Origin: Reclinomonas americana ATCC 50394
Lineage: Eukaryota
Length of the DNA stretch: 47,931 nucleotides
NCBI GenBank assembly: GCA_048213135.1
Contig: PS015462.1
Location: 1-47,931, forward strand
Reading direction: 5' to 3'
In this document: piece after piece, positions 55 through 47,200 of the stretch
How the letters are laid out: every line of letters starts with the position of its first letter
How positions within the stretch are numbered: the first letter of the stretch is position 1
Position numbers and translations under genes: made by a program
The notes under the pieces: generated by a model
What the model saw: the letters and a program-made list of their open reading frames with translations, nothing else
What the model was told of the DNA's origin: nothing
The model's database searches: none

Positions 55-3000
55 TTACGTGGGTAGCGCTGTCGACAAGTCGGCAGCGGGTGTGAGCAGT
101 GAGGTAAAGTAGTCCTTGATGGAGAGATTGAGCTTGTGGCGATCGACGATCTCGGCCAGCAGATCTTGTCGTGTTGGGTGTCTGCGAAGGAGCGAGTGAG
201 TGAGTCGAATGCCGAGGTGTGGTGCATGACCATCATCGTCATTGGACGCAACGGCCTCTTGTATCGCTCGTCGGTGTAACGCACGGCGCGATTCGCGTTG
301 ACCGAGGTCATGCGAATGAGCGGGCCGAGAAGCCGTGCCGGCACCAGCATGTGATTCATCAGGGGGCCGAAGAACGGCACTTGATCCTTCACGAACAGCT
401 GGATGCGGTACAGGGAGTTGCTGACGGGGTAGATGACGATGCGCACGTGATTGAAGTTCGACTTGATCGTCGACGGCCAGTAGTCCCACGAGTGTTCGCA
501 CCACACGATTTGCACAAAGTCGTTGCCAATGTGCCGTTTCTGCAAGCGCACCTCGTCGTCAGCCCACGCAGACCAACAGGAGAGAAAGAACCTTTCTTTC
601 TTTCTCTACCACCACGCACCTTGTGAATCTGCCGCCCGTCGTCTGTCGCCACGTTAGGCATGCGAGTGGCCACGTGGAACAGTGCCTCGGTGGTGGAATT
701 TGACCAGTAGGGTGCTGTGTCGCCCGTCTGACCGTCGGTGGAGAGGCCACCGAGAAAGCCGCGGTGTGCCTTCAGGTCCACATTCCAGCCGAGAGAGAAC
801 AGGAAGCGCTCATATTCAGCGCTACCGCTCTCGTTCAAAAACAGCTCCCTCTCATCCTCCTGTCCGAGACGGACGTACACGATACCAATCTTGTGCGATT
901 CGCGGCTGCGTTTCAGACCCCCTCCGTGAGTGCGACGGGTATTGCGGTGCGGTACATGCGCGGACACACACGAACACGCAAGACGCAACTCTGAACGCAT
1001 GTCGAGCGCACGCAGACTCCTCAAAAATTTGTGATTCAGCTCGAGCGGGCAAAAATGCTCTGGCCCACTCAGCGACAGGAACCCGAAATGCGTCAGCAGC
1101 AGTCGACTGAAGCGTGTGAACGGGTGCTCGGGCGACGGCAGCGGTGGTCGAGCGGGTGTCCTGTGCATCGTGTTAGGCAAAGAGCGGCACACAATGTGCT
1201 GGCGCACGGCGGCTACGCAACATTTGCAATTGTGTGCGTCGCGAATGACTCTGCTGTCGAGCCTCTTGCCGGTCCATCTCCGTCTCCATGTCTTTCCTTC
1301 GCACCTCCACATTCGCCGGTATTGTTGGCAGGACGACTTGCGCAAATGCAGCGGCTTCCGTGTAGGTCGCCAGCACGCTGCGCCACGCACACAGGTGAGC
1401 GACGACTCCACGACGGACGCAACCATTCACCAGGCGATTCGCAACGCAACTGCTCGTGTAGTCGCTTGAGCATGTCGACCTGATCAAAATTCAAATCTTC
1501 GCTAAACATCGGTGGTTGGTCGGGTGTCCACAGCTCGGGCGGCGCCGCCGCTGCTGACGCCGTCAGCGACGACGACGACGAAGAGGCAGAGGATGCACCG
1601 GCAGCCACAGCGCCGTCAGAGGCCGATCCAGATGGTGAGTCTGGCGTTCCCAGTGTCAAGCTGTTCACCAGCGCCGTCGCTCCCGAGCCACCAAGAGTGG
1701 CGAAGCGCACATTGCGGGGACTGCGCGGATTGCCGGTCTCCGATGATGCAGTGTCGGTGGAGTCTGTGCGATCGTGGCTGGAGCCCGCGCGCCGTGGTCT
1801 GCACCGACGTGGCAACAGTGTTCAGCAATGGGAACGAGCAAAGCAGCACAATTCGTACACAACTGGAAATGGCCTCCGGTGGGAGTGCTTCGTGGCGCAG
1901 ACAGCGTGTTCCCGAGCGCCACGGCGGCGAGTGCGGCCGCACTACCAGCCGTCGTCGCCTTGTCTCCGCCAGCCGTCACCGTGGCCATGCTGTGACCACG
2001 CGAGCGCACATCCGCCACCAACGCTGATCCGGCTGCTGAGGCAACGCACGTCTCAGTGCAATGGACTAAACAAGAGGAGACAGAGACACACACGCACAAT
2101 CCTGGTAGACAGACGAGCTGCGCGGATGTGCTCCTGGTGGTGACAATAGGGGAGATACTGGCGATGGAGAAGGGGATCCCGACATGGAGCCACCTTCTGG
2201 AATCGACACCGCGAGAGAAGTTGACTGGTTGCGATCCAGCATTTCACCGCCGGAAATCACGGTTGGTAATGACGGCTCCTCGTCCACCATGCGGCACTTC
2301 CAGGCATACCGGCCAGTCATGTCACGAGTGACAACAATGACACATGGCGCTGTGCAAAATTCCAGTCAGCACAGAGTGTGATACTGCAGCTGCTGGGGAG
2401 TGAACCCTGAAACGCAACTGCCGTCGTCGTCGACAGCGTCTTGTACAGAGATTAGCCGGCGGGCGTGCATTTCAAAAAACATCGGTGGCCGGGTTCCGTA
2501 CGGGAACTCGGTCCCGGGGCCGGCCACCACAAATGGACCAGCAGTGAGTGGCTCCACCGAGTTCTCCGAATACTCTACATAGGAACTCGACAGAGTCTCC
2601 GCGCCTGAGGAGTAGGGAACAGGATATGAGACCACGCTGGCGTCAACTCGCACAAGGGCAAAAAACAAACAGCAGCTCACCGCCGGCCAGTGGGAAATTG
2701 TTGAATTGATGGAGGATGTGGGCGAGAAGGCTCTCCGCGGCCTCACGCACCACCGGATGCAACATGACAGACTCGGCACCGACAGAGTCATCTACGGAGG
2801 AGCCGCCTCGGGTCGACGAGCTGAAGCGACTCGCACCACTGCCGCCGGCGGGGCTGCCACTCCCCGATGCCATTGGCGACGCTGACGGCGACAGTGGAAC
2901 CGCTGGAATCTTGACAGACTTGCGCATTGCGGCGCGCTTGTCGGCCGACACACCCTGCACACAGCATTAGCGCGACGAAGATTGGATACAAACAGAATGC

Positions 3001-6000
3001 GGGGCATGCAGCTCACCACGAGCGACGGGCCCATGACTCCCGCAAGTGCGGTGGCGGCAGTGTTGGGATCCATGCCGCACGCAATCACATGGAACAGAGC
3101 GTGTGAGATCAGCGGATTGGCCAGCACGTCGGGTGTCAGTGCCATGGTGACATCCAGCAGCGCATCGTACAGGCCAACGATAACAGGCACTGCGACAAAA
3201 ATGAGGACGCTGCTGTGGAGGAGAGAGGAGGCAATGGAGACGCACAGCGAGTTTCTGTGAAGCGCATGATTTCCTCCTCGATGCGCGATCCCAGCGTGAT
3301 TACGAGATATTGCGCCGCTCCCTGCACACGCGCGGGGAGGAAAAGGTAAGCAGCAGTATGGCGGCACGACTGAAGGCGACAGCATAGTGGGGCAGCCACA
3401 CGCACCGGGTCGACTTCGACAACGCGACTCATCACCTCAGAGAGCATGCGAAGACAGTCGTGAGCAGCTTTCGCCGTCTGTTGTCGCTGGTCGACGCTCT
3501 TTTTCAACAACAACTCCAAGCACGAGTGCATCTGGACGCGCATGTCACTGCGCACGACAGAACATGCATGAGCGCTCGAGTTTTAGCAGCGGCGACAGCA
3601 CACAAAAATACGCTTGAAATCCCCACCTGCTGGACAAGAGCAAGTCCTGCAACAGCACGAGGCTGAGACCCCACACAGACATAATGTCGCACAGCTCGGT
3701 CAGGTTTTGTGACGCGGCCCTTGTGAACAGAACGTATAGGCGGTGGTGCAGCTAGGAGGAAAACAAAGGTAAGTAACCAATACCAGCTTTGGGGAATGAA
3801 CAACTTGGACGATGGCAGTGTACCTGAGCAAACGTGACGCTGGTCGACTCGAGGCCAGAGGGTGAAAACTGCACAGGAGACGGCAACGGAGCGTCACCAC
3901 CAAGTGAAGAGTGCGAGTAGACGGCCAGTGCACGTTACGCAACTCTCACTTGCGGAGTATTGGCAAAGTGATGCGGCAAGAACACGATGCTGACCATGAT
4001 GGACAGACCGGCCTCCTTCAGCTCGCTGTTGGTCGACGATTGTTGGAACTACAGTGACAAGGAAGAACGCACTGTGAGCATCAGCACAAAGAGAGAGAGA
4101 GAGAGAGAGAAGCTACTGGAATCGATCGCAACAATGCTCTGAATGGCGTCCAGGAAGGCCGGCAACAAGAACCGGCTGCCGGGGTGGTCGAGAGCAAAGA
4201 AGCCACGCGAGTGCATGATGATGGCTTCGGGAATCTTGGACGATCTGTCGCTGAGGCCCTGCAAGAGACAAAACACACACACGCGTCACGAACAATCGAC
4301 TGTGCTCACAATGGCGCGCGATCATACACACCTCTTGCAGCAAACTGTACACCAGGGCCAGATGCTGCGGGAAAATCGGGCGACTCGTGCGGCTGCACAC
4401 AATGCGACACAACACACTGTACGCTGACGCTCGGCCATCCTCGAAGCCACTGTGGCACACGGAAGTGTCAATAATAGAGCGGCAACTACATCGTACCGGC
4501 AGCTGGACGCAACGAGTCGGCACGACTGCACGCTTCCAGCAACCATTGCCCGAAAATGTGCAGCAGCGAGTTGGCCTCTGGCGGGTGCACAATGGTCGGT
4601 TGTGATGAACCACTGCTACCGCTGCCGCTGCTGCTGCCGCCACCACTGCCGCCACCGCCGCTACCCGATCCACCTGCATCAGCAACCAATAAAGGGACGT
4701 CAGCGACGAAGGATAGAACGGAACGAAGAAGAGCAGGAAGCTGATACGCACCGAATTCGGTCTTGGCCTCACGGCGTCCGACCGACAGGAAGAGGTTGAT
4801 CACATCGGCGAGTCCGCGGAAAGCCAAGGCGAAAATACCAGCCTCGGTGATCTCATTCGGGTTTCCCATGATGTCTGCAGACGACGGTCAGAAACACGGC
4901 TGGCACACCGACGGCGCGCGTGTGAGAGAAGACGCACAGAGAATCTTGTCCCACAAAAAGGCGATCTTGGAGCGCTTGATGGTGGCATCCGGGTGCACTC
5001 GATCGTCCTTCCCATAGTACAAGTAATCAATGAGCTGACCAGTGAGTCGCATCAGGGAGCCCTGTTCACGGCGGTGAGGATCTGCTCACTGCACAATCGT
5101 GAGACGATGGCAGGCATCGTGCGCAACTCTCCACTGTTGGACCGCCTGATGATAGTTCTTCCACAACGACATAAAGTGGTGCAGTTCGCCCCACAGCTCC
5201 TCACTTGCATCCGACAGCAGATCGGCGCGAACAAACAAATCAAAAAGAACCTGGCACAACACTGTGAGTGTCATGCCCATCGTCGCGCGCGCTCAGTATT
5301 GTTGTTGTCGCACCTTCAGCAACACATCGGCCACATCCTGCAAATAGTCGGCCGTCCCGCGACTCTCCACCAACAAGTAATTCGCAATGTTCATCTGCAA
5401 CTTCAGTACGCGGTCCCTGCACATATTCATGAGAGACTCGTCCAACTGGTGCCTGCGCGACAGCTGACGCACCATGTGGGACGCTCCAACTCCACATCCT
5501 TGACAACCAACGACGAAAAGATCTCCACGGCAGCACGACACAAACTAATGTGCGCACTCTCCGAGCCGCCCCTTCGTGGCAAGAAGAACACTTGCGCCAC
5601 CAGATCCGACATGGCCTGCACATCGTCGTCAAGCACAGGCAGCGAAGAATGACGCAGGGCGACAGAGGAATGCATACCATAATGTACAACTGCAGATTGG
5701 AGGCCATGGTTGGTGGTCGCTGAATCGTCGACCGCGACGTTGGTTTCATCCAGCCTCGCAGAATCTCAAACACACTCTCCAGCGTCTCCGTGTTGGTCAC
5801 CGGCAGAGTCATGCTCTGCGAAACAAAGAGGTGAGCGTCAACATGGAATCGTCACTACGTCCGTTCCAACAACCGCAACCACACCTGACGCAAAATCTCC
5901 AGTACCAAGTCGATTCGTGCACTGACACTGCAAATGGCGGCCATCTTCTGATCGTTGCGCAGTGATTCGGAAAGCCAGCGCACCAAAACCGCCAGCAGCG

Positions 6001-6031
6001 CACCGGGGCACTGTTCGAAGCCCCAGTCGCC

Positions 6032-6067
<36 letters not shown>

Positions 6068-8107: not shown

Positions 8108-10571
8108 NNNNNNNNNNNNNNNNNNNNNNNNNNNNNNNNNNNNNNNNTGAGCACTTGATTCCGCGCACTCGCTTACTCACGTGGTCCTCACCTGTGGTGG
8201 TACCACCAGCGCCGCATCCGGGTCCGGCAGTGGTGGTTTTGCCGTCGACGGAGCACCAGTTCAGGTGCGCAACGCTGGCGGTGCCATGGGTGGCTTCCTG
8301 GCGGGACCAAACAGTCCGTCACGCGCCGTGTCGAGCTCCTCTCCAGCAGCAGCCTCAGCAGCAGCAGCTCCGTCGCCTGTTGCCGCACCCACACCCATGC
8401 TCACACCCATGCAGCCAGTGATGCAGCTGGCACCATCGGCGGCGGCAGTCTCCGTGGCCGCTGTCGCGGTTCCAGTGGCCGCAGCCATGCGTGCGTCTAT
8501 TATTCCGCATGGCCAATGACATTGGTGACTATGTGAGCTGACTATGTGATTGGGCTCGCAGCTCCGCTGCCGGAGGGTTGGACTGAGCGGTTGGATGTGG
8601 CCAGTGGGCGTGTATATTATCAAAATGACGTGACTCGTGTCACACAGTGGGATCGTCCAGTACCTCCACCGTGCGTGCCTGTCCCTCCGTCGATACGTTT
8701 GTGTGTATGCGTACTCACATATGTCGACTGTTAATCAGGGGGTTGGTCGGCGTGACGCTGGTTACGGAAGACATGGCACGTATGCAGATCGGACCGGGTG
8801 CTGCTGCACCACCGGGTCAAGTTGCTGACGCTGAATGGAGCAAGATGCGCAATGCCGAGACCGCCATTGGCCTGCTTCGTTGCGTATACGAGTGCCAGGA
8901 GAAGAATGGTTGATGGTTGCACTCAATCCGTGGTATGTGCAGGTTCTGGAATTCCCGGCGTCCCTTCGCTGCCGCCAGCCGCACCTGTCGTGTTGGACTT
9001 CTCCAACGGCTCCACAGTGGCACAAGCCGCCAACTCGGCCGCCGCCGCAGCTGCTGCTCCCATTCCCGCCGCCGTTCCGACTCCGTATGCGCCTCCAGTC
9101 CCTCCCGTCCCCTCCGCTGTCCCCGTCGCCGTTCCAATGGCGCCCGCTCCGGCTACACCGGTTGCTCCTGCTGCACCAACGTCAGGACCTCGACCTGTCG
9201 CACCAGTGGCTGTTGTTGATGAGACGGTGAGCTGCGGGCAGCTGCAGTCTCGCACGCACATGTCGATTTCTTGTGCTCATGTGTGCGTGTGTGTGTGTGT
9301 GTGCAGGGCATTTCCGTGCCGCCTGTGGAAGCGCTCCCGTTGCCAGACGGCTGGGTGATGCGTTTCGATGCCACGCACAATCGTAACTACTTTGTGGATC
9401 ATGTTAACAAGACCACCTCGTGGTCGGATCCGCGCATTGAGATTCGGCGCAGGATGGTTGATGATGCACGAAGTTGAGCAGTGTGTGCACTCTCTGATAT
9501 GTCCGTTAGACTATGTCACTTACACATTCCTGCGTTGCATCTACCAGTGGCGTTGGAGGTGGCTCGCCGTGCTGATGCCGAAGATGCGCGTCGGAGAGAG
9601 GAAGACATGCGGCGTGCCGAGGAGGAGGCTCGTCGTATTGCAGCCGAGGAGGAGCGGTTGCGACAGGAGGAGTTGCGCCGCCGGGCTGCAGAGGAAGAGG
9701 CACGTCGTCGTGCGGCCGAAGAGGCTGCGCGCCGTCGGGCAGTAGAAGAAGAGGCTCGCCGGCGGGCGGCGGAAGAGGAGGCGCGTCGTCGCGCGGCAGA
9801 AGAGGCTCGTCAGGCGCAGTGGCGCAGGGAGGAGGAACAGCGACGGCAGCGTGAAATCGAGGAGGCCGAGCGCGTGGCACTGGAGGCACAGCAGATGGAG
9901 GAAGAGCAGCGCCGGTTGCGTCACTTTGTTGTCTGTATTGCGACTCGCACGCGTCGGCCTGTTTCTCACCATGTTTACTTGCTTGTTCGTGCGCAGCCTG
10001 CAGGAGGAGGAGGACATGCGGTACGCACAAGAGCTGGCGGAGGCTAACGCCAACGCCGCCAATTCTCTGCCGCCGGGCTGGGAGGAGTGCATTGACGCCC
10101 AAGGCCGGTGAGCAGACCGTGATCGACCCGCCGCAGTCTTTTTTGTGGCATTCACACTGTTGATACGTTTGCAGAACGTACTTTGTGGATCACAACACGC
10201 GCACCACTACGTGGAACGACCCTCGTCGCGCGCCTCCAGCGCAGCCGCCGATGCACCAACAGCACCCGCAAGTGGCGCAACCCAACCCCTACGCTGGCTA
10301 CGGACAGCCGGCGGCGCAACCGGTACGTCGCACGTGTGCACCCTTGCTGACTCAACCACCTCCTCCTTCTTGCTCACAATCTGTGCAGTACGGAGCGTAT
10401 GGCTACGGAAACCAGTACCCGCAGTACATGCAGCCGCAACAAGCGTACCCTGGCGCGCAGGTTCGACCGACTCCTTTCTCCTCCTGTCTCTTGTTGTCGC
10501 AAACTGAGGGAAGTCGCACTGCCACACAGCAACCTCCGTATGGATACGGCAACTACTCGCAGCAACGTTAA
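7768..10571 (+). CDS. C2 domain + 3 WW domains + ER/K single-alpha-helix protein, no HECT domain
   Basis: MVKAKFIVRLHSFSATNLLAKDRGGTSDPYLK...KTQVIPRSLNPTW (C2). Three WW motifs: PLPEGWTERLDVASGRVYYQNDVTRVTQWDRP, PLPDGW...YFVDHVNKTTSWSDPR and [39 protein letters not shown] repeats at 9600-9900. The C2 domain is cut by gap 8108-8147, so the join across the gap is assumed. Confidence 0.75.
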
Positions 10572-10802: not shown

Positions 10803-13800
10803 TTACGTCGGTGGCACCTCGCAATGATCGCCACTCCAGCCGAGCTGGCATTCGCAGCTGCCGTCTGGACGGCACGTGCCACGGGCATTGCAGGTCTCCA
10901 CCGGTCGGCATGTGCAGTGAGCGCCGCCGACGCCCGGGTAGCATTGGCAAGTGTTAGTCGCCAGATTGCACGTGCCGTTGTACAGTGTGGGCCAGTCGGG
11001 CAGGAATGGCGCACGGCAGTCCAGGTCTGCGCAAGAATTCAAGTGCACTTAGTATGACAAGCATCGCGCGTAAGGACAGAGAGAGAGAGAGAGAGTAAAC
11101 GTGTGCTCACCACTGGCGCAGAGGTAGGGGTTCGGGAACGGAACCGGTGGTGGCGGTGGCGGCGGTGGCGGGGGAACCGTCTGCGGATCACGCACGTTGC
11201 AGCTCGGACCAGTCCAGCCCAAGTGGCAGCGGCATGTGGCATCGCTGTTGCACTGGCCATTGCCGGAGCACGTCTCCACCGGTCGGCACTCGCAGTTCTT
11301 GCCATTGATGCCCGGGTAGCACTGGCAGCGACCGGCCACGCACACGCCGCTGAACAGGAATGCATTCGGCACGGGGCTGTTGCACTCGGCATCTGTCGCA
11401 CACGGGCCACCACCCGGAATCGGTGGATTCGGTGGGCCACCGTACACATCGCAGCGCGCGCCACTCCACGACGCGAAGCACGAGCACGAGCCGTCGGTGT
11501 TGCACAGGCCATGGCCATTGCACGTCTCCAGCGGACGGCACGAGCAGTCGGGTCCACCAATGCCAGCAAAGCACTCGCAGCGATTGGTGTCCTTGTTGCA
11601 GAAGCCACTGTGAGGGGCGTTGCAGGCGAACGGATCCGAGGCGTCGCACATTGGCGGCACTGGGATGGTGTTCTGGCAGTTGTCGCCCGAGAACCCACTG
11701 TTGCACACACAGGCACCGCTTCCGTCCAATCGTCCGCGGTTCGAGCAGTTGCGCGTTGTGCATCCGTACGCCACCGACGCAAACTTGTACTGCGACGGGC
11801 ACGGATCTGAGCCCGTGTTGTTCGGGAAACGATCCAGGTTGCCACCGCTGGCCAGGAACTCGTAGCAGAACGACGTCGGCGGGTTCTGGTTGCACAGACC
11901 CTGGAAGTGTGCCGTCACGTCCTTGATGCATGTGGTGGTGTTGGTCAGCAAGCTGCTGCCCAGCGGCTTCGGGCATGTCGTGGCTGTGTGGAATTAACAT
12001 GAGCAAACTGATTCTTCTCAACTCTCTCCCTTTCAAAAACGCAACTGTCGGTGCGGCCCCAGTTGGCCGAAATGGCAAACACATACTGGCCAGCCGGGCA
12101 TGCCACCACAATTGTACCGTCACTCGTAGTTCCCGCATTGTTGTCGTCCTGGCAGCCAGTCTGTCGCTGGATCGGCACGCAGTCCGGACCAGTGAAGCCC
12201 GACTTGCAAGTGTTGCAACGTGGGCCAGTAAAGCCGTCAGCGCAGACGCAGTTGCCGTTGCCGTCGCACGTGCCGTGTCCATTGCACGTCGTGGCCGCGC
12301 TGCAACCCTTGTCGCACTTCGGGCCGTACATGCCGTTGATGCACTGACTGCAGTCAGAGCCGCCATACGGGTAGAAGCAGTTGCAGGTCGCGTCCGCATT
12401 GCATGTGCCCTGCCCGCTGCACGACTCCACCGGACGGCACTCGCAGAATGGTCCGTTGATGCCCGGTCGGCACCCGCACTTCTTCGTCACCGGATCGCAG
12501 ATGCCGTTGTTGAAGTCCGTGCAGCTGTTGATGTTGTTCGGGTTGCACATGTCGCACTTGTCGCCCACAACACCAGGCTTGCACGCGCAGCCGGTGCCCA
12601 GCACGCCCTCCGAGCACGACGTCGTGCCGTTGGACAAGCACTCGCTGCACAGGCCGGCACACTGCGGTCCGTACCGACCAGGAGCGCACTTGTCGCACAG
12701 CGGGCCAGTGAAGCCCTCCTTGCACTGGCAGCCCGTGCCAAACACACCCTCCGAGCATGTCGCCGTGCCGGCACCGTAGCAAGCGCTGCACTGGCTTGTG
12801 CATGTCGGACCAAACAGTCCCGGCAAGCACGTGCTGCACGACTTGCTGGCATCGAAGCCAGTCGTGCACACGCACGATCCGTCGGTCTGCGCCACACCCT
12901 TGCCGCTACACGTCACCGCGTCCGTGTACTGGCAAGCCGAGCCAGTCGAGCCTGGCTTGCACACGCAGCCGGCACCTGAGCGACCCGGCACGCACTCCAC
13001 CGTGTTGGCCACCACGCAAGCAGCGCACCGGCCACTGCAATCAGCACCAAACGCCTGCGCAATGCACTGATCGCACAGCGTGCCGGTGAAACCGCTCTTG
13101 CACACGCAGCCGAGACCAGTGATGCCCTCGCTGCACGTCTGAGTGCCGCCGACATCGCACTGCGAGCAGAGGCCGGCGCAAGCAGGTCCGTACCGGCCCG
13201 TCTGGCAGTTGGCGCAGTTGGGCGACTGGAAGCCAGAGTTGCACAGGCACTGCGCATCCGACTGGCACACTCCGTAGCCGCTGCATGTGCCGGCGTTGGT
13301 GCACTGGCACAGCGGGCCGTTGGTGCCGGCCGGGCACGAGCACTTGCCGTCGCCCAGCGCACCCTGGTTGCACGTGCCACCATTCTGGCACAGCGGGCAC
13401 ACACCCGAGCAGTCGGCACCGAAAAAGCCGGCCGGGCATGTGCACTTGCCGTCGCCCAGAGAGCCCTGGTTGCATGTGCCACCGTTGAGGCAGGTAGGGC
13501 ACACGCCCGAGCAGTCGGCGCCATAGAAACCGGCAGGGCAAGTGCACTTGCCGTCGCCCGAGGCGCCATCAGCGCACGTGCCACCATTCTTGCAGTTGCA
13601 CGTGCCGAGGCAAGCCGCGCCGTAAAAGCCCGGCTGGCAGAAGCACAGGTTGCCACCGGCCACTGTGCCGTTCGGGTTGCACGTGCCGGCTGGCTGGCCG
13701 TTCGGGAGCACCGTCTGCACGTTGCTGAAAGAGGGGAAGGGGAGAGCAATGAGGACGAGGACAAAGGGAGACACCGATTAAGGTGAGCCTCACCAGTCAG

Positions 13801-14520
13801 TGGCCTGGTTGCACTCGCAGGCGGCTCCCATGAAGCCCGCCACGCAGCTGCACGTGAAGTCGACCGTCAAGTACTTGTACACGGTCGGGCACGGCTCGTT
13901 GAGCGCGCCATTGGCGCTCTGGCCCACGCGGTTGAGCGGGCCATCATCCGCCACACTGACGGCGCACGACGCTTGCCCAGCGCACGCCGCCGCCACAAAG
14001 CTCGTCACATCCACATCCGACGGAGCGCACGTTTGCGAGTCGACGCGCGTGTTGCCAAACATCGACGAGATCGGGCACGTGGAGGTCACTGACACACACA
14101 AACAAGCGAGGTCAGCCACCAACAAAGGGTCGTCCTGGCTTCTCTCATGGCCGCGGAAAAACTTCTCACCAATGCTTCGACCCCAGGAAGCCGAGTTGAT
14201 CGCCACCGGCATGGCGTTACCGAGTGGCCGCACCTGACCTCCGCACGTGATTGTCGCCTGCACATTAGTATCGCTCACAGATGCTGTGTGTGTGTACACG
14301 GTCAGTGGTGTGGCGATGCAGTGCCGCGCACAGAAAGCAATCGCTGCACTCAACTCTGTCCGCACTTGACCGTTCTCCCTGTGCAGAGAGCGTTGTTGTG
14401 AGCGATCGCGACGAAGGGCAAAACAACGAGAAGAAAAATGTCGCAACTTGCATCCACAGAGGAGCACGACACAAAGAGCACCAGCAACAACACCAACAAC
14501 ACCGACGCAAGACGGACCAT
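10803..14520 (-). CDS. Secreted protein with two SUEL (galactose/rhamnose-binding) lectin domains and many EGF/laminin-EGF repeats
   Basis: Signal peptide MVRLASVLLVLLLVLFVSCSSVDA. SUEL motifs ITC...INSASWGR...TCP...C.GQASCAV...EPCPTVYKYLTVDFTC and VACPAGQYVFAISANWGRTDTTTCP...DPCPSQYKFASVAYGC. Repeated CxCxxGFxGxxC. 6 introns, no transmembrane segment, TAA at 10803. Confidence 0.85.
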
Positions 14521-14773: not shown

Positions 14774-15151
14774 ATGAGCGGCGAGGAAGTGTCGGCCACG
14801 TCGCTCTCTATTGGCGAGCAACAGCAGTTGAATGCGCAGAAGGTGTGTACGTGTGTGAGAGAGAGAGAGAGTGGAGAGCGAGAGTCTGACTCATTGTTGC
14901 AGATTGCGTTTCGTATTGCGAATGAGCGGTATATGCGCGCGCATCCTGAGCTGCGGAGAATGATCTCAGCAGTTGCGTGCGCGCTCTTTGAGTGAGTGAG
15001 TGTGTGAGTGAGTGGGCGCGCTCAATTTTTCGTCGCTTTGCAGTTTGTGCAAGAGTGTTTGCATGAGAAGCCCGACGATGTGTGTTCGCTGGCGGTGGCC
15101 TTCTTCACGCATCCGAACTTGAAGGGGCGTATTGAGGATGTGCATGAGTGA
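14774..15151 (+). CDS. RIIAD1: RIIa domain-containing protein 1 homolog (exons 14774-14842, 14903-14971, 15044-15151)
   Basis: Spliced MSGEEVSATSLSIGEQQQLNAQK|IAFRIANERYMRAHPELRRMISA|FVQECLHEKPDDVCSLAVAFFTHPNLKGRIEDVHE* matches the RIIAD1 pattern (K..TRIANEKYLR.H.E...LIS.F..E....RPD.I..FAA.YFT.P.L) as recalled. Confidence 0.85.
14972..15043 (+). other. Intron with +1-shifted donor A|GTTGCGT (RIIAD1 intron 2)
   Basis: GT-AG excision gives ISA|FVQE and keeps the conserved F. Confidence 0.85.
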
Positions 15152-33200: not shown

Positions 33201-34151
33201 CGAGTGTGATGGAGAGGGTCGTGTCCTCTTCTCCCCTCTCGCTGCTCCCCTTCACAACCTTTCGCTTCTCTCTCTCTCTCTCTTTCCCCTACTCTTTACC
33301 TTATCGCTCTCTCTCTCCCTCCCTCTCGCTTCTCTCCCTCTCGCTCTCCCTCCTCTCCTTCCTCCTTCCTCTCCTTCTTCCCTCTCTCGCTTCTCTCCTC
33401 CCTCGCCTGCCCTCCGGCTTGCTCACTCTCTCCCTCTCCCCTCCTGCCAGTGTGTCGACTTGCAGCTCGAGGCCGACGAGTTGCGCGAGAAGAACGCCCA
33501 GTTGCAGGCGTCGCACTCGATGCAGGCGCTGCATTTGCTCGAATCGAAATATCTGCAATTGCAAAGCGAAGTCACTACGTTGCGCCAGGAGCTGCAGGTG
33601 CGTACATTTGTGTGTTTGTTGGGGAGACGGTGTGCGCGCCTGCGTGATTGCTCATCGCCTCTTCCCGCAGAGCTCCAAGCAGCAACTCGGAGTGCGAGAC
33701 AAGCGAATCGCTGCACTGGAAGCGTCTGTCGAGGAGCGCACGAGACTACACAGCAGCGAACTGTTCCGCGCCAACCAGCTCATCGAGGAACAAGAAGAGA
33801 AGGTGGCGGCCCTCAAGAAGCAATTGATGCAGTTGCAATGTTGCGGTCGAGTTCCTCTTGTATTCGGCAATGTCTCTCTTCTCCGTTCGTCTCACTCTCG
33901 TTATTGTGGGGTGCAGCCGAGCGCATGCTTCGAGTGCAGGATTCGCAGCGCATCGTTCCACAGGCACTGCGCGGCGGTGGCGGTCGGCAAAGTCCGCGGT
34001 TAATGCCCGGATTCAATCCGAATGCCAGACGAGTTGCGCACAAGTCCGACGTTCCCTGTCGCCAACAGCAAAGCTCACTTTCCTTTCTTTGTGCGTCACC
34101 ACCTTGCAGAGCAGTACCGCATTCGAGGGTGCCCTCTTGCCTGGCTTCTGA
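30230..34151 (+). CDS. Kinesin heavy chain, kinesin-1-like; P-loop region hidden in gap 31113-31132
   Basis: [115 protein letters not shown]. Long coiled coil, and an IAK-like tail [12 protein letters not shown]. Confidence 0.9.
31226..31293 (+). other. Intron with +1-shifted donor C|GTTGCGT (kinesin)
   Basis: GT-AG excision restores the conserved IRDLLN-P (c|cg). Confidence 0.88.
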
Positions 34152-34816: not shown

Positions 34817-37800
34817 TTAGATGTTGTCCGCGAATGACTCCCAGCCGCGAGGTGAGTTGCGACGACGCGACTCGGCCAGGAAGGCCGCCTGTCGTCTGGG
34901 ACGTTCGGTCAGGGTTGCCAGCAGCTGCAGTGGCAGGTCGGGTACGTCGACGGGGGCTGCTGCAGCGGCGGTGACGGCCGCGGTGGCAGAGTTGCGTGGG
35001 TCCTTCAGCTTGCCGCGTCGCAAGAACACTCGGTACTGCATGTCGGATTCCGCCGCGTCTGCCGGCTCTGCTGTGCCCGCACCGTCTCCGTGCTTCGCAG
35101 CCACCGCCTCGAGAGCCTTCGCTTCGTCATGTGAGCCGGCCAGCTCGTAAAGCAGCTGGTTGACTCGTTTGCGCGGTGTCGCAGCCCTCTTCTTCTTGCT
35201 GGTGGTCTTGTTCTCCGGATTCGGCTTGTCGACTTGCATGTCTTCAGCGACGACCGCAACGACTTCATCGCCTGTGACAGTGGCCTCGGTGATGGCAGTG
35301 TCGGCCGGCGGCAGGTCGACCGGACCGATGGTGGTGGCGGCGCTGCTGTGTTTGAACAGTCAGGCGGGTACAAAACGCATGCCGGTTGACAGACGCACCT
35401 GCCGACGTCCGTCTTCATGTGCGTGATGCCGCTGCCGCTCTCCGATACCGGTGAAGGCAGCAGAGAGTTGGCGATCGGAGCTAGCAGCCACGTCGGTATT
35501 GGCGACTTCGCAATCGGAGCAGGTGGAGGCGGTGGTGGTGGTGGTGGCGGTGACACCAGCGGTGGTGGCTGCGGTGCTGGCGGCTGTGCCTTGTATCGCT
35601 CAGTCCGCACGGCGGTGTTGATGTGCTTGATCTCGTCCGTTCCGAGATCGCGAAAGCACGCCGTGCACATTTTGCGGGTGACAAAGCGACTGGCCAGCAC
35701 TGCATCACAAACAAACGGCAGATGAGCGCCACATCACTGCGTCTTATACTGGTGCACGTAACTCTTGGACAGGCACTCCAAGTGAAACGAGTGGCCACAC
35801 GCCGGCAACTGAAAGACCCCGTGCTCCATGTCCAGGAGGCACAGCGGGCACTCCACCACATCGGCAGCGGCCTTTTCGCGCTCCACCTCGAGTCCCTGAC
35901 GGTACTGCAGGTAGGCTGCGTCGTCGGTGGACGACGACGATGCCGCCTGCTTCTCGAACGCATCCTGAATCATCTGCTCCATCTTGCTGTAGCGCACGAG
36001 TGGATCCTCGTCAAACAGCGAGTCGACACTCGGATCCACCGCCGCCGCCGCCGCCATTGCAGCCGGCTTTTCTTTCTTCTTGGAGGAGGTGGTGGTGGTG
36101 GCCGTCATTGCAGAAACCGACACTGCTCTGTCGACTGCGGCGATGGCCGGCGACGACGCATCGGTGACACGACGGCGCTTCTTTTCTGCCGGCTCCAAGG
36201 CAGCCACATCGCTAGCAGCCACGGCGCACCCGATGAGCTCCTGCGCGGGGGAGGTGCGGCGCGCATGAGTCAGGGAGACTACGAGATGGATCAGGCGCAC
36301 AGCGACGCAACATTGGTGACCGAGTTGAAGACAGTGAATGAGCGCTTCGGTCGGTAGGCCTCAACGTGCGCAGGAACCGACAGAAGCGTGCTCGAAGTCG
36401 TGGTAGAGTCGACAGACACTGCGGAGAGATCAGCAGCGCAGAGGAGCACCCAATGGCAAAGGAAACACAAACGCACCATCCATCAAGAACTGCATGTCGG
36501 ACGATGCACGACGAATGTCTTCGTGGAAGCGCTGCAGTTGCAGCATGCGCCGTTGCAGGTGCAAAACGCGCAGATCCCGGCACCGGAGCTGTCGGCGTTG
36601 GTGAGTCAACCAACGAAAGACACAAACGATGACGCAGCGAGCACACCTGATTCTCCATCTCTTGCAACTGCTGCCGCTGTTGCTGCTGTTGCTGGCGCAT
36701 CGCACTACGCTCCTCTTCCATGTCATCGGCGGCGAGGTTGACTTGTGTGGAAACATGTCGCACAGACGCCCGATCCGTGTTGCATCCGCGCTCCACGAAC
36801 GGCAAGTCGCGAGATTCCACAACTACCGGTAGCGCGGGTGCCGGTGGCGGAGGAAGCGGCAGTGGTGACGGTAACGCTGGTGGAGGAGGTGGCGGAGGCA
36901 GTGGCGGTGGCGACGGCAACGCTGGTGGAGGAGGCGGTGGTGACGGTGACGGTGGCGGCGAAGGCAACGCTGGAGGGGGAGGAGGAGGTGGTGGTGGGGG
37001 TGGCTCTGGTCGCAGAGAGGCTGGTGGCGGTGGTGGTAGCGGAGGCAGTTGTCGCATCGGTGGCAAGGCCGAAGGCTCGGGCAGCGGTGGCAGCACCAGA
37101 GGAGGAGGCGGCGGCGGTGACGGAGGTGGAAGCGGCGGCAGCCTCGCCAGTGGACCGTCATCAAAAATGACAGTAGCCGTCGTCGCTGTCGTTGACGTGG
37201 TGGCAGTGGTGGTGGTGGTGGTGGTGGTTGCCGTGGCGGGCACTGGCAACGCACGCGCACCAAAAGACTGCGCCTGTGCATCAAAAGTAATATTAGAGAT
37301 ATTGCACGAAACCGGCGGCAGTACATAAAGACGCACCAAACCCGGCTTCGACTGTACGCTCAGCAAGAACTGCATGAAGGACTGGCACTGCTGGCCGTTG
37401 CGACTGTCGATCAGCAGCGACAAGAGGCCCCACTGCGCGTGCAGATGCGGGAAGCGACGAATCATGCGCAGAAAGTTGTCGCCCTCGACCTTGGTCCACG
37501 CATCGCGACGGACGGTCTTCCCCGGCAACACATGCTGCATCAGATACGCATTGGCATCGCGTCGCAGCTGCACATTTGCATGTGTGTCAGAGTTGCAGCA
37601 GCAGGCATGCACACACACGCAAAAAGGACCTCGCAGAGCACTCCGAGCTGCTCGGCTGACATGCTCGACTCGTCGACCGACGCAAAGTCGCAGTGGTGGT
37701 GGTTGAACAGATGCGGAACAACCAAGTCACAGAACTGGCCTGTGTGTTGTGTGCGAGCTGCACATGTGAGCAACGACTGTGCGTGCACAGTGAGGCAAGT

Positions 37801-39612: not shown

Positions 39613-42600
39613 ATGTTGGGTGGCGATGCCGAGCATCCCCATGGCGCAAGGACAACACCGCCCAACACCACATCTGCATCAGTGGCTGCTGTCTTTGCTG
39701 CTGCAGCGGCCGCCTCTGCTGCAGCAGGAGGAGGAGGAGCAGCAGCACCACCAACAGCAGGTGGTCCTCGCTTGTCAACGTACCACCCGGCACCGCCAGA
39801 AGCGCGCGCCACTCGCTTTGTGTACTCGCTGGCACACATGAACGCGTTGCGCATGTCTCCGCTGCTGGTCACTGATGAGGCGTGGCAGTTGATCCCGCGC
39901 GGCTTGCGGAAGCCGCAGCCATGGTTGGTCACCTGCAATGCGCGCTTGTGTGTCTCGCGTGTGTCTTTGTGCACGCTGCTCATGCGTTGGTAGGGATCCC
40001 GAGGAGGAGCGCATGATGGCGCGGCTGACCGAGGCCAAGTACAAGGGCGGTGGTGGCATTGGCGAGGAGCTGGTTCGTGCCAGACTCTCTTTTGCGTCGT
40101 GTCCACACTTTTTTTGTGACGTTTGCAATGCGTGCAGGAGCCCAAGCGCTCTGCACATCGGGAGCATGGAGAGGGACGGTTGGGTGCTGCAGGTGAAGGT
40201 GGGTTGGGCAGGCGAGGGGCGGCGGGAGGTGGGACTGGTGGCGACTCGCTGCTCGGACGCAGTACGACGACGACTGGACGGGGTCGTGGCGCGAGTATCG
40301 ATGCGCCGCCTGCGTCGGGAGACTCGTGGCGCACACGAGGAGCACCTGCAGGTGTCGGTTCGTTGGCGTCGTCGTCGGCATTGTCGTCGTCGTCGTCGTC
40401 GTCGTCGACAGCGCAGGGTGACAAGCGCGATCGGTGTGTCTGTTTGCAACTGGATGGGGCGGCGGTGTCCACAAGTGCTCACCAATGTCTCGTGACAGGG
40501 GATCGCGAAGCAGCAACGACTCGAGCTGGCGTCGTGCCGAGGGCGCGTCCAAGGTGTGTTTGTTTGTGTGCGTGTGTGCGCACACAGTTTGTGACTCTAG
40601 CACGCGCCACGCAGCCGGGCTTCGACATGCGCTCGCTGGGCAATGTGGCGCCCGCAGGTGGCACACTTCCCAGCGGTGCCGTGTCGCTGAACGAGATCGA
40701 GAGCTCGTTTGGTGGCAGCCAGTCTTCCACTGGCAATCGCCGCAGCAACAAGACCAAGGACGGCAACGCGGGCGACTACATTGCCTTTGTGAAGAACCTC
40801 GAGTCGGGAACCTCCCGCGAGGACCTCATGATGTTCTTTGCGGCGCAGCGTCCGCTGTCGGTGCAACTGAACGGTTCGCAGGCGCATGTCTACTTTGGCG
40901 ACGAGAGTCACCTGCGAGGAGCACTGGAACTGACCAACAAGGTACTGTCGTGTGCGTTGGCGGCGTCGGTGGGGCACCGCAGATTCACTGTGCTCGCACG
41001 CAGCCGCTCAAGTCGCGGCCGATTCGAATCGTCGTCGACAATCAATCACGGCCGGTCGGAGGCGGAAGCTCACAGGGCCGTCGCATTGCCTCGGTGATTC
41101 AACCGAATTCACGAGACGCAGACTCCAAGGTGATCATCATCACACCATGGGTTTGAGGGGGGCGGGGGTGGTATGTGCCGCGTCGTTCTGACACGCCGCA
41201 ATGCTTTGCTAGTCTACGGCAACCTCGACCGCCGATGCCGACAGTCGTGCGCGTACGGAGAACAGGAAGGGTGCGGAGGGCGGGGCTGCTGGCGGCTCTG
41301 CCGATGGTGGTGGAAATGGTGGTGGAAATGGCGGTGACGGCGACAGTCGTTCAGGAAGTCGCTTTGCGCGCTTCTTTGAGGCCACTGTTGTTGCGTAGTC
41401 TTGTGTCGTCCGTCTGCCCCACTCCTACTTCTATGCTGATGTGTCGCCAGACACCTGACGACTTCCCGGAGCCGTCGGAGCAGAGCTCGGGTGTGCAGCA
41501 CGGAGAAATGGTGATTATTGGCACGGTGAAGAATTTCGACCCCACACAAGGCGGCAGCGGCACTAGTGCCAAGCTGCAGCGCAAGTCGAGTGGGCCAGCT
41601 GGGGAGACGCCGAAAATGTCACCGACAAAGACGGTGGCGCAGTCGCCGGCCAAGTCGACCACGGTGTCGCACTCGTCGGATTCGGCCGCCTCGTCTGCCG
41701 CCGCGCTGCTCTCGTATGACGCGGCATTGCCGTCGTCACCCGAGATGCCGTCGCGCCGAGCGCACCTCGATGCGCCCAACGCGCTGCCGCCCATCATGTC
41801 GGCCATTGGTCCGGGCGGTTTCTTTGGTGACATGAGCAGCCCTGGAGTCGCTCTGGTACGTTGCATGTGTGTGCTTGCGCGTCGTCTTTTTCTACGACTC
41901 TCATGCACGGGCGGCCACACACAGGAGGAGGGTCTGGAGGAGCTGGGCGGCAGTGATGCACCATCGTCGCCACCGTCAATGGAAGGGCAGGCGTTCGAGT
42001 CATCCTCGTCGTCCTCGCCGTGGGGTCGACCCATGGGTCTCATGGACGGTGGAGCTGGTGGCGGTGGCGTTCCGGGGGGTGCTGGAGGCGGCGGCAACGG
42101 TCGACCAATGCCGACTAATATGGACTTCCACTCACTGGATCGTCAGCCTCATGCTGCGCGCAATTTGGAGAGCGCCTTCTCCAGCAATGTTCCAGTGGAC
42201 TTTGGTGCCGTACTGGCGCCTCCGCGTGGACCTGTGCCCGGCTTGTCGATTCCACTGACGCAGATGACGGCGAAACCGGCGCCGGAAGCCTCGTCGATGC
42301 GGCCGTCCGACATTGAGAGTGTGCTGCGCCAGATGCTCTCCATCGATCCGGGACCACCGCGAGCTGGCCCTTCGCATCAATCACAGCCTCCGCTTATGAT
42401 GCAGCAAGGCATGCCCTACGGCAATCCGTATGGTGGTGGTGGTGGTGGCGCGTACGCACCTCCATCATCACTACCGCCGTCCATGATGCACCAGCAGCAA
42501 CAGCACCAACAACAACAACAACAGCATGCACGACAGCCGTCCCAGCCCATGCAACAGCAGTCTCCCGCTCCTGCATCCTCGGTGCATTTCCCGGGTGCCA

Positions 42601-43848: not shown

Positions 43849-44290
43849 CTACAGCACACAAGTNNNNNNNNNNNNNNNNNNNNNNNNNNNNNNNNNNNNN
43901 NNNNNNNNNNNNNNNNNNNNNNNNNNNNNNNNNNNNNNNNNNNNTTGGAGTCGCAGGTGCGCTTGTGTCTCCTGTGACTGAGTGTTGGCGTATTTTCGTG
44001 TCTCTCACATGCGCGTTTCTCGCGTTACAGCTGTCTCGGAGATGACGCTTGGGGGCGAGTGAGTGGTGGTGGAAGGGTTGCATGTTTGGTGGATGTTGTG
44101 ATGGGATGATGATGACGGAGGAGAGCCGCAGTGTAGCAGCAGTGGCCAATGTGGCAGTGGCTGCTTGCGGAAGGAATGAAAAAAACGCGACATTTGCTAA
44201 TTAATTCTACACTGCTTACACTACTCTGCGGACTCCGCAGACTGGTGCTCCATTTCCCGCAATTCAGGGGCGTAATGTTGCTGCCGTTCA

Positions 44291-47200
44291 TCACGTCGTG
44301 AGATCCTGCGGGCACACACACTCACAAAAGCACGCACGACGTACCGCCAGATACGCATAGTCGGTCTCGGCTTCACGCGGACGGTTCTGTGCGCGATAGA
44401 TGCTGATGCGACCGAGAATAGCACGCACACGCTCCCGCCGATCCTTTGTGCGGTTGGCAATGCCAGAGAGGCCTTGAATTGCACCCTCCAAGTCTCCCAT
44501 GCGTCGCTGCAAGCTGCAGCGGTAGTAGGCCAGCGACTCGGACGGTTGCACTGAGAGCGCCTGATCGATCACACTCATCGCCTCGTCGTACTGCACGTGC
44601 GTTCGCGCAACGGTGAGAACACTCGCCTCCCACCATCCACTCGGCCACACCACGCACCTTCTGTTGCCGCTCACACAGCATGGCGTACATGCGGAGCGCA
44701 AGCAAATGTCGTGGATCAATGTTCAACGCTTGGACCAGCGTCTGCCGTGCGGCACTGAGCGATTGATTCTGCACACGCACCACCCTCCACGGTGAGTTCA
44801 CCGCACGCAACAATCATGTGTGCCGGTTGTCACACGCACCTCGGCTTCACGATTGCCGGCATTGATATTGGCCAAGTGCAACATGAAGCGTGCGGCGTCG
44901 GCCAGCACATCTGCTCGGTCTGGGCTCAGCTCCTTGGCCTTGTTGAAGTCGTGCATGATGTCGAGCTCCACAAAGCCGAGCTTCCACTTGATGTTGGCAC
45001 GCAGGCAGTACAGAGAGCCGGTATTCGGCGACATTTGCAGTGCCGCCTCTGCGTCCGACAGTGCGTCTTGGAGTCGATTGGACCGCTGTGACGAGTTAAC
45101 GAATGAGCGAGCGCGCCAGACGACCCAAGCCACGCGACAGAATGACGTACCATGAAGCAGGTGGCACGCCGGAAGAGAACATTGTGCATGTGCTCACACC
45201 CGATTGTAAGCACCTGCGTCAAATCCTCAATGGCCGCGTCAAACTGTTCCATTCGCTCAAAGACTTGCGACCTCCGCAGGTACAGATTGGCATCGTCCGG
45301 ATGCTGGGTAATGGCAGCTCCAAGCACTTCCACTGCACCGTTCGTGTTTCCTAGCGAGAGCAGCGCTCGCGAGCATTGCACCAGCAAGTCGACATTGTTC
45401 GGTTCAATTTGCAGGCCTTGCTGGACATCCTGTCATCGCAACCAGTGTCAGTACCCGCACTCTCTCTCACACACTCACACACACACGGTCATTCTGCAGA
45501 AGCTGACGTAACTTGCAGCGCTTCCTGCGGACGCTTGACGCCCAAAAAGAGACTTGCACGGGCGCAATACGTGGCAGCTCGCTGCGGATTGCACTGCAGC
45601 GACATGTCAAAGTGCTGGAAGGCGGCCTCCGTTTGTTTCTGGAACGAAGCCAGGTCTGCGTTCTTGATGGCCATTAGCGCCTCCGCTCGGCACGCGTGCA
45701 CGTCGGCCAGGAGTGCGGGATCGTTTGGCGCCGCATACCTACATCGTAACGATCAGACACCCGAAAGCACACACAGACAATGAGTGGAAGGAAACCAAAC
45801 TGCAACGCGGCTTCTGAATCCTGCAAAGCGTGGTCTGCATTGCCGAGCAGCCGAGACGCCGTGGAACGCAGCATGTAAGCCGACGAAAGGGTGTAGTCCG
45901 CAGCCAGTGCCGACGAAGTAATCTCAATGGCGGCCTGCAAGAAAAGTTGCAGAGGTAAACAAGTGAATACCTCACACGCCGCTCTCCGACCACACACGCA
46001 GCGCACCTGGTAGTTGCCGGCTCTGATGGCGTCGAGCGCCGCCTGCATCTCACCCTGCTCGCCATCAACACTCGCAAACGACAAGCTGCGACTCATCATG
46101 AGATCGCCACCGTGGCCGCCACCACCCACAACTACACCACTGCCGCTGCCACCAGCCGCGTCCATGTTCGGTGCCGACGACTCCTGCCCGCCAGTGTCAT
46201 CGTGTGTTCCTGTTGGCGGAGCAAGTGTCAGGCCAGGAACCTTGAAAAATTGATGATACACGCATACCGTACTGCTGACTCGAATACGACGCAGTGCTTG
46301 AACCGTCCGAGTCCGGTGTCATCTCGCCCTCCTCACGTCCACCATTGTCGCGGCCGCCAGTGCCACCGTCACCACCCTCAATCGCCGCACCGGATTCGTC
46401 TGCTGTACCGTCTCCGTCACCACCATCACCATCACCATCACCGTCGTCATCGTCGTCGTCGTCGTCGTCGTCTGCCCCAATTCACTTATGAGTGAGTTGC
46501 CGCGCGTCCACACAAGAAAAGATCACAATCTGCATCGTCGCACCATCGAGAAGATTCGGATCCAAATCAACGGCCTTGCTCCAGTCCGCCGCCGACTCCT
46601 CCGCGCGACCAAGCTCGTCTAGCACCATAGAGCGCGACAAATACACCTCGCCAGTGTACGTCGCCTCCGGCGCACACTTGATGGCTTTCGTATAGTGCTC
46701 CAGCGCCAAATCCAGTTTCTGCTGCTCACGATTCATGTCGCCGAGGAACTGCTCGATGGCCACAATATGCCTAACAGCACACACAAGTTGAGTGCGCGAA
46801 ACTCGTCCACACTGACTTTTCTTGCAGCAGACGCACTGTGGATTATCGGTGGCCTCAAACGCACTCGCACACGATGCTTCCGCTGCTTCCCACTCCCCAC
46901 GCTCGGCTTGGAGCTGTGACCACCAACAGCACAACAACATCTCAGCATCANNNNNNNNNNNNNNNNNNNNNNNNNNNNNNNNNNNNNNNNNNNNNNNNNN
47001 NNNNNNNNNNNNNNNNNNNNNNNNNNNNNNNNNNNNNNNNNNNNNNNNNNNNNNNNNNNNNNNNNNNNNNNNNNNNNNNNNNNNNNNNNNNNNNNNNNNN
47101 NNNNNNNNNNNNNNNNNNNNNNNNNNNNNNNNNNNNNNNNNNNNNNNNNNNNNNNNNNNNNNNNNNNNNNNNNNNNNNNNNNNNNNNNNNNNNNNNNNNN

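Follow-up and report, generated by a model that had tools for sequence, protein, structure and literature searches.

A frequent second class of predicted 5′ splice sites, displaced by one base and tied to the last exon base, in a nuclear locus of Reclinomonas americana

Introduction

Recognition of donor (5′ splice) sites by U1 small nuclear RNA (snRNA) in a shifted or a bulged register has been proven in human cells, where, in the sections of PMC4856993 considered here, non-canonical sites form a small minority of 2.1-5.1% of 5′ splice sites, as a preliminary description of the DNA studied here had also held. We analyzed a 47,931-base stretch of the Reclinomonas americana ATCC 50394 genome (contig PS015462.1; the whole stretch is called the window below) in which a large share of the predicted introns begin with GTTGCGT or a near relative (GTT donors), and the remainder mostly with ordinary donors of the form GT(G/A)(C/A/T)G(T/C). 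The closest described system is the mammalian shifted (+1) register (Roca and Krainer 2009, via Tan et al. 2016, PMC4856993), which, in the sections considered, is alike in its cleavage at GU, in a pairing block lying one base further in and in the G at +6. The oligonucleotide with which it was examined, ACA|GUCAAGUAUA, has the same A at the exon end, its A|G mimicking AG| (PMC4856993, same sections). As far as can be judged from their predicted junctions, the GTT donors have the GU cleavage site, the one-base displacement of the block and the A before the intron G. The mammalian register, however, is a small part of the human 2.1-5.1% (PMC4856993, in the same sections), whereas the class described here amounts to about 21-32% of introns, has a tight GUUGCGU consensus and an exon base that predicts it almost fully.

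Other described donor systems are alike in part. Human sites with a U bulged at +2 or +3 (Roca et al. 2012, cited in the sections of PMC4856993 considered) share an ordinary intron side with an added U, but here the exon G is missing (present in 1/36). For the Archamoebae, the part of Roy and Bowser (10.1101/2022.06.08.495308) considered here gives a lineage-wide departure from GURAGU, namely GUUUGU with +3U in Entamoeba and GUGCGC with +4C in Mastigamoeba, with a matching change in the U1 5′ end. Each is one transformed consensus read in the normal register, whereas in our locus two consensuses coexist and one of them is displaced by a base. The left-handed and right-handed sites of the LUC7 paralogues (Kenny et al. 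2025, PMC11842720, part of the text) likewise are two donor classes served by one spliceosome, with an exon-side and an intron-side consensus. GTT donors are like the intron-side class in doing without the exon G and relying on the intron side, but the LUC7 classes in that text form a continuum in a single register, whereas here the intron block has moved by one nucleotide. U12-type introns also form a second class with a rigid donor within the same genes; in the introns described here, however, branch motif, spacing, length and acceptor are those of ordinary introns. No publication on a donor class of the GTTGCG or GUUGCG kind came up in the literature that could be searched, which is no proof that none exists.

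Motif and frequency of the GTT donors

All 36 positions listed in the preliminary description read GTT(G/A/C)(C/A/T)G on the strand given for them, the hexamer being GTTGCG at 28, GTTACG at four, GTTGAG at two, and GTTGTG and GTTCAG at one each. The proposal that the conserved G and T are displaced from +5/+6 to +6/+7 was borne out, as +6 is G in 36/36, by construction since the sites were chosen on that feature, and +7 is T in 28/36, against +6T in 24/38 ordinary donors. Expressed as shares of the 36 sites, +5C reached 89%, +6G 100% and +7T 78%. As a plain hexamer GTTGCG was only mildly over-represented in the window (70 copies on both strands, 50 expected). Its unused copies in exons numbered 4 in sense against 19 in antisense orientation, a depletion that is uninformative because control hexamers were equally skewed (GTTGCC 9/25, GTTGGC 5/20, GTTGCA 9/38).

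Of about 115 modelled introns, roughly 21-32% belonged to the class, depending on how ordinary donors are defined, in censuses that are approximate owing to parser errors; the earlier claim of a frequent class thus stood, and its figure of about 30% widened into a range. When GT[AG]NG and GTT-type donors were given equal scores, 114 introns were obtained, of which 63 had ordinary donors, 36 had GTT-type donors and 15 had others, and 28/36 of the listed sites were recovered. Once any GTNNG was accepted as ordinary, the corresponding numbers were 84, 24 (22 of them listed) and 7 among 115 introns. Penalising GTT-type donors lowered the total score from 2145.0 to 1964.5 and the coding sequence from 25,274 to 23,990 nt, and 15 GTT-type donors still remained among 108 introns. 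The GTT donors fell in many unrelated genes, as had been claimed, and in all three phases, although for the 30 modelled sites the counts were 7/15/8 in place of the earlier estimate of about 11/15/10.

GTT sites as intron starts

Three independent lines of sequence evidence, a donor-agnostic parse, a test free of coding information and protein homology, confirmed that GTT donors are real intron starts. The gene parser worked by dynamic programming and scored reading frame, stop codons, a self-trained coding model and a 3′ module, in which a CTNA(A/C/T) branch motif precedes (C/T)AG by 10-40 nt, while requiring nothing of a donor but GT. With a codon model GTTGCG started 9/91 introns, an 8.6-fold enrichment over its frequency among all 6084 GT sites (p=1.2e-6). 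With a three-periodic Markov model it started 12/86, 12 times the background (p=3.7e-10), and was the commonest donor hexamer of that parse, with GTGCGT at 6; GTTACG started 3/86 introns there, 19 times its background (p=5e-4). The Markov parse matched 15/36 listed sites exactly. In the coding-free test, a branch motif with (C/T)AG lay at 55-100 nt after 16.7% of 5979 GT sites, and after 30/69 GTTGCG sites (p=1.6e-7), which placed GTTGCG at the top of all GT hexamers; GTGCGT came second (29/82, p=3.4e-5), and GTTACG had the module at 6/10. Two other scoring schemes were dropped, a parser using codon usage only, which was too weak, and a site-by-site scorer choosing acceptors by coding score, which gave implausibly long introns.

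Gene models contained 30/36 of the listed sites. Among these, 25/30 introns could not be read through in frame, those retainable being at 989, 16575, 17289, 21557 and 29095. At 24/30 sites no ordinary donor lay within 45 nt that kept both frames and was followed by a good 3′ module, and the six exceptions with an in-phase ordinary-type alternative were mostly GT repeats within the intron.

Homology fixed two junctions to the residue in the kinesin-1 heavy chain gene (about 30725-34151, plus strand). The three exons around 31226 and 31438 were searched one by one against solved structures, and we number residues by chain 4hna_K, human kinesin-1. Exon 1 extends to residue 147 (121-146 being matched by its own residues 4-29), exon 2 spans residues 149-195 (own residues 4-47 match 152-195) and exon 3 runs from residue 197 (own residues 1-65 match 197-261), leaving at each junction exactly one residue for the codon split by a phase-1 intron (147|148|149 and 195|196|197). 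The introns between them are 31226..31293 (plus strand, GTTGCGTG, 68 nt, phase 1), within the motor domain, and 31438..31510 (plus strand, GTTACGCA, 73 nt, phase 1), which splits an Asn codon ahead of switch-I. Two metagenome kinesin genes, L002 (1060-1345) and L004 (2240-2505), hold introns at the same two codons and in phase 1, with ordinary donors, GTCGGT and GTGCGT at the first position and GTGAGC and GTAAGC at the second. Being shared, the kinesin intron positions are old, and they are filled here with GTTGCGTG and GTTACGCA. In L002 and L004, too, the exon ahead of the second intron ends in A (Asn codon), and their donors are nonetheless ordinary. A third metagenome kinesin, L001 (74% identical), had no introns in the region compared. 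Two further GTT-class introns were placed on the plus strand at 33840..33916 (GTTGCGGT, 77 nt), in the kinesin tail region, where the gene segment scored low, and at 34033..34109 (GTTGCGCA, 77 nt), where no other frame-keeping GT-AG pair exists. Intron 31753-31813 and the donor at 32091 (plus strand) have ordinary-register GTCTGT after a last exon base G, which makes the ordinary class wider than GT(G/A)NG.

The RalGAP-alpha/tuberin-like GTPase activator gene (55-5944, minus strand), recognized by domain and homology matches, gave further junctions. Its curated model with GTT donors is a frame of 1289 codons with no internal stop, and homology fixed five or six predicted GTT junctions in it. 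One alignment to centipede (Strigamia) RalGAP-alpha (E=2e-61) spans junctions 1221, 989 and 252, and two more RalGAP alignments span 5127, 4513 and 4132; the alignments are gapless at 989, 252, 4132 and 5127 and have a one-residue gap near 4513. Intron 182..252 (GTTGCGTC, 71 nt, phase 2) is the last of the gene, and the C-terminus after it aligns gaplessly to the end of the homologue. Intron 906..989 (GTTGCGTC, 84 nt), inside the Rap-GAP domain, is in frame and free of stops; left unspliced it would be a 28-residue insertion relative to the homologue, and an open reading frame (ORF) scan runs straight through it, homology alone exposing the intron. In an exhaustive search, its acceptor coincided with the start of the match (query residues 172-175) for most of the 150 homologues listed. 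Intron 1161..1221 (GTTGCGTA, 61 nt) was missed by the parser, and its junction lies within a single homologue alignment. Introns 4049..4132 (GTTGCGAT, 84 nt, phase 0, with a TAG acceptor) and 5062..5127 (GTTGCGCA, 66 nt, phase 0) are crossed without gaps, and 4450..4513 (GTTGCGTC, 64 nt, phase 2) is the one with the gap nearby.

Also in this gene, intron 1378..1450 (GTTGCGTT, 73 nt) is not retainable in frame and has no ordinary alternative, and 2350..2418 (GTTGCGTT, 69 nt, phase 1) was found in the donor-agnostic parse, with no other GT-AG pair keeping the frame. Intron 1799..1863 (GTTGTGTA, 65 nt) is ambiguous by one codon, a GTGTAC donor lying 3 nt downstream in phase. The candidate 3869..3943 (GTTGCGTA) is rivalled by an in-phase GTGAGA 6 nt upstream, which agrees with the earlier caution about a nearby alternative GT at 3943.

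The last exon base separates the two donor classes

The exon side differed sharply between the classes. G was the last exon base at 29/38 ordinary donors and at 1/36 GTT donors (Fisher p=1.3e-11), while A was found at 1/38 and 21/36 respectively (Fisher p=6.5e-8), the remaining last exon bases of GTT donors being T (9/36) and C (5/36). Conversely, an exon ending in A was followed by a GTT donor in 21/22 cases and an exon ending in G in 1/30. In practice, therefore, the class can be told from the base that ends the exon, G going with an ordinary donor, and A and mostly T too with a GTT donor. The consensus of the ordinary class is G|GT(G/A)(C/A/T)G(T/C) and that of the second class A|GTTGCGT or A|GTTACGT. 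When the ordinary GGUGCGU is set beside GUUGCGU of the GTT class, the two are one letter apart, and the exon positions of the GTT class fitted the columns of the ordinary class better when shifted by one (log-likelihood -148 vs -201).

The preliminary description had characterized the GTT donors as ordinary donors with one extra T, which proved incomplete given the difference on the exon side. Loss of the exon-side G fits a shifted register and argues against a bulged extra U. The proposal that a shifted register forms a major donor class was upheld as regards a frequent displaced class, and would be better put as a class in the shifted register that goes with exons ending in a base other than G. 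Two donors of another kind, G|GTTCGTGCG at 28624 (minus strand) and 32922 (plus strand), have T at +3 with G at +5 (GTTCGT) and keep the exon-side G. This is as the normal register predicts, and two cases are too few to weigh.

Both classes share one 3′ architecture

The 3′ halves of the two classes showed no difference. Median intron length was 72 vs 71 nt, G+C content 0.55 vs 0.54, and the acceptor was CAG in 38/39 vs 26/27. Branch motifs (CTCAC, CTCAT and CTGAC in both) and the spacing from branch to acceptor were alike. On the strength of these indistinguishable 3′ halves we rejected a separate spliceosome for the GTT class. U12-type introns have the donor (A/G)TATCCTT and a branch site TCCTTAAC near the 3′ end. 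Such an identity was rejected, the donors here being GTTGCGT or GTTACGT and the branch that of ordinary introns rather than TCCTTAAC-like. Also rejected was an introner-like mobile family: all-vs-all blastn of 114 introns gave 72 non-self matches, and the 30 of these that were inspected were 15-28 nt long with sliding offsets, as simple repeats give.

GTT introns in the other genes

Outside the RalGAP-like and kinesin genes, GTT-class introns were found in genes on both strands. In the WW-domain protein gene (plus strand), intron 8879..8942 (GTTGCGTA, 64 nt, phase 1) appeared in every parse, one other GT-AG pair keeping the frame, and intron 9915..9996 (GTTGCGTC, 82 nt), the sole GTT site whose preceding exon ends in G, supplies the frame change required before the third WW domain. 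Between them lies 9473..9547 (plus strand, GTTGAGCA, 75 nt), which carries an in-frame TGA within the donor itself. On the minus strand the donor-agnostic parses placed 11984..12045 (GTTGCGTT, 62 nt) in the EGF/lectin gene, 14284..14354 (GTTGAGTG, 71 nt) was recovered by the parses, and 14379..14447 (GTTGCGAC, 69 nt) follows right after a signal peptide. Pfam searches with single exons gave no match at the lectin junction 12045 or in the gene at 20927-23617.

Two probable introns were identified by eye. The first, 14972..15043 (plus strand, GTTGCGTG, 72 nt, phase 0), has an in-frame stop, a CTCAA branch and a CAG acceptor, and the second, 18279..18356 (minus strand, GTTGCGTG, 78 nt), has an in-frame TAG and adjoins an assembly gap. 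Introns 16575..16646 (GTTACGCG, 72 nt) and 17289..17363 (GTTGCGTG, 75 nt), both on the plus strand, and 29006..29095 (minus strand, GTTGCGTT, 90 nt) are among those retainable in frame. The GTTCAG site 16984..17064 (plus strand, GTTCAGTC) is doubtful, since the parser favours a same-phase GT-repeat donor at 17017. For 19172..19241 (minus strand, GTTGCGTG, 70 nt), obtained in the donor-agnostic parses, no other frame-keeping GT-AG pair exists. Donor-agnostic parses also gave 23279..23338 (plus strand, GTTGCGTT, 60 nt) and 36241..36311 (minus strand, GTTGCGTC, 71 nt).

On the plus strand, the donor of 21117..21268 (GTTGCGTC) opens an unusually long intron of 152 nt with a GT repeat, in which GTGTGTG offers alternatives. 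The donor of 21557..21700 (GTTGCGTT) makes a weaker case, its model being unusually long as well (144 nt), without a clear branch motif and retainable in frame. The GTTGCGT motif at 22017..22023 is a putative donor for which no acceptor was found, and intron 23092..23168 (GTTGCGTT, 77 nt) contains two in-phase GT(G/A) alternatives. Intron 41390..41450 (plus strand, GTTGCGTA, 61 nt) has an in-phase GT 3 nt upstream and so a one-codon ambiguity, in agreement with the nearby alternative noted earlier; the donor-agnostic parses took 41387 rather than 41390.

Two introns interrupt recognizable domains. Intron 35700..35762 (minus strand, GTTACGTG, 63 nt) lies inside a RING-H2 finger, where the upstream exon stops at position 32/44 of the RING profile and the remaining Cys pair comes after the junction. 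Intron 45430..45512 (minus strand, GTTACGTC, 83 nt) lies inside a TPR repeat, with TPR profile matches on both flanking exons.

The locus and its setting

The window comes from the nuclear genome of a eukaryote that is rich in GC and extremely dense in introns. It holds about a dozen nuclear genes with very many short introns. These are about 70 nt long, and their CT(C/G)A(C/T) branch motif lies roughly 20 nt ahead of a CAG acceptor. In the curated RalGAP-like model, 27 introns interrupt 3870 nt of coding sequence, or one for about every 140 nt; nearly all measure 56-110 nt, with two modelled ones of 108 and 142 nt. G+C content is about 57-60% in gene regions and about 47-49% in spacers. Eight runs of N, 3203 N in all, mark assembly gaps at 6108-6757, 8108-8147, 17642-18265, 31113-31132, 38246-39039, 43036-43327, 43864-43944 and 46951-47652. 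The gap at 31113-31132 takes out part of the kinesin P-loop exon, and that at 17642-18265 interrupts two genes.

As with the RalGAP-like and kinesin-1 genes, domain and homology matches identified the WW-domain gene, the EGF/lectin protein gene (minus strand), a very large plus-strand gene for an EGF-teneurin and sortilin/BNR protein, a RING-H2 protein gene and a TPR protein gene. In the very large gene, ORFs 23461-26157 (EGF repeats) and 26161-27936 (sortilin/BNR), both on the plus strand, share a frame with one stop between them. This stop lies inside a 69-nt GTGAGT intron, 26153-26221 (plus strand), which makes the two ORFs one gene of about 2070 codons. Protein searches, one of them exhaustive, and a cluster look-up yielded no named protein that was near-identical or close to those of the window. 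The best match of the RapGAP protein was 51% identical (insect) and that of the kinesin 74% (ENA protein P0277); a search with the sortilin/BNR protein returned mainly metagenome proteins, the few named ones bacterial, and was uninformative. In the RalGAP-like gene a Gly/Ser-rich low-complexity insert (4590-4690, minus strand), which adds about 20 residues when compared with the centipede protein, is exonic, not intronic. No Rfam family matched anywhere in the window at gathering thresholds. Dinucleotide repeats are abundant in introns and spacers (e.g. 9275-9303, 16610-16625 and 21150-21170); over the two strands of the window, AGAGAG/CTCTCT has 200 occurrences and GTGTGT 183. The GT repeats create many pseudo-donors, which confuse gene parsing.

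Discussion

The explanation that we hold with about as much belief as doubt is that a single major spliceosome serves both classes, its own U1 reading the GTT donors in a register shifted by one base. That the same major spliceosome would remove both is argued by their indistinguishable 3′ halves. At the second class the U1 small nuclear ribonucleoprotein of the organism would sit, with respect to the cut, one base upstream of its place at ordinary donors, with the intron G+1 taking the slot that the exon G-1 holds in ordinary donors. U+2 would then be a single mismatch, the GCGU block would retain its usual partners and the A at the end of the exon may contribute a compensating pair. Cleavage would still fall ahead of GU, presumably fixed later by U6, U5 and Prp8. 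The involvement of U1, the register and the fixing of the cut site are what we infer, as distinct from the introns, the two consensuses, the rule for the last exon base and the 3′ architecture common to both classes, which can be read from the predicted junctions, exact at several sites.

Several results weigh against this reading. In predicted duplexes with the canonical U1 5′ end and with an ACGUAC end of the Mastigamoeba type, adapted to +4C, from both of which the organism's own U1 may differ, ordinary donors paired with the canonical end at a mean of -5.7 kcal/mol and with G+1 on C8 in 36/38, whereas GTT donors averaged -1.4 kcal/mol, worse than 400 random GT sites (-2.6), and took the shifted register (G+1 on C9) in only 7/36. 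With the ACGUAC end the GTT donors placed +6G on C4 in 34/36 and G+1 on C9 in 21/36 or on C8 in 3/36, at an energy (-5.2 kcal/mol) only slightly better than that of random sites (-4.0). Furthermore, GTT donors vary less than ordinary ones (+5C 89% vs +4C 58%), and a second-best register that tolerates a mismatch is not expected to have the tighter consensus. The -2 position of ordinary donors is not A-rich (24%), which makes the A before GTT donors a feature of their own and not a plain shifted image of the ordinary site. All junctions, moreover, were predicted from sequence alone, and the parser errs: it placed a false intron, 1068-1017, in a conserved RalGAP block and mis-modelled the kinesin intron 31753-31813, with its GTCTGT donor.

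The weak canonical pairing and the tighter consensus give substantial weight to a dedicated or adapted U1. We regard as a serious, if tentative, possibility that there are two U1 species, a second U1 or U1-like snRNA having a 5′ end complementary to A|GUUGCGU and acting as a dedicated reader. The tight consensus of the class (28/36 GTTGCG) would be its natural counterpart, as would the failure of the canonical end to pair with GTT sites better than with random GT sites; nevertheless, the window is without an Rfam match, and we know of no organism in which two U1 species divide the introns of the major spliceosome. U1 ends have co-evolved with atypical donors elsewhere (AACAAAC in Entamoeba, ACGUAC in Mastigamoeba), yet Thecamonas and Mamiellales have standard U1 ends despite their +4C donors, both according to the part of 10.1101/2022.06.08.495308 considered here, and expressed variant U1 genes are described in humans (PMC3561869 and PMC10870369, in part). 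A broader possibility, which we think unlikely though worth stating, is that two parallel systems of 5′ splice-site recognition operate within one major spliceosome, ordinary U1 together with either a second U1-type snRNA or a dual-register U1 for A|GUUGCGU, the exon base deciding between them. If true, the GTT introns would have to be counted as a third kind in addition to the U2 and U12 types, set apart from ordinary introns only at the donor.

The shifted register has also to be weighed against a bulge, in which ordinary U1 would stay in its normal register and loop out one additional U, at +2 or +3. On the intron side the consensus matches that of ordinary donors exactly but for one added U, and such bulges were validated in human cells (PMC4856993, sections considered), but the last exon base should then remain G as in 29/38 ordinary donors, and it is G in 1/36; in addition, whichever U1 end was used, G+1 fell on C8 in only 3/36 predicted duplexes. 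We consider the bulge improbable. Misplaced junctions, with the true sites at nearby ordinary GTs or with segments left unspliced, would account for the class as an artefact of annotation, and the mode of prediction already mentioned, the 5/30 modelled introns retainable in frame, the 6/30 with an in-phase ordinary-type alternative and the ambiguity of 3943, 1863, 41390, 16984 and 22017 each speak for it. However, GTT donors were enriched in parses that credited the motif with nothing and in the coding-free test, the kinesin-1 junctions are residue-exact and stand at conserved intron positions, the RalGAP alignments are gapless at junctions, and 24/30 sites have no ordinary alternative, all of which make an artefact very improbable.

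The binding of U1 and the position of the cut are normally locked together, and rare human exceptions uncouple the two by one base. If a quarter of the introns of this genome do so, the organism would provide a natural system in which to study how the cut is fixed after U1 leaves, what share base pairing and proteins each have in donor recognition, and how donors and snRNAs co-evolve. Gene finders that rely on a single donor matrix would mis-annotate about one intron in four in this organism.

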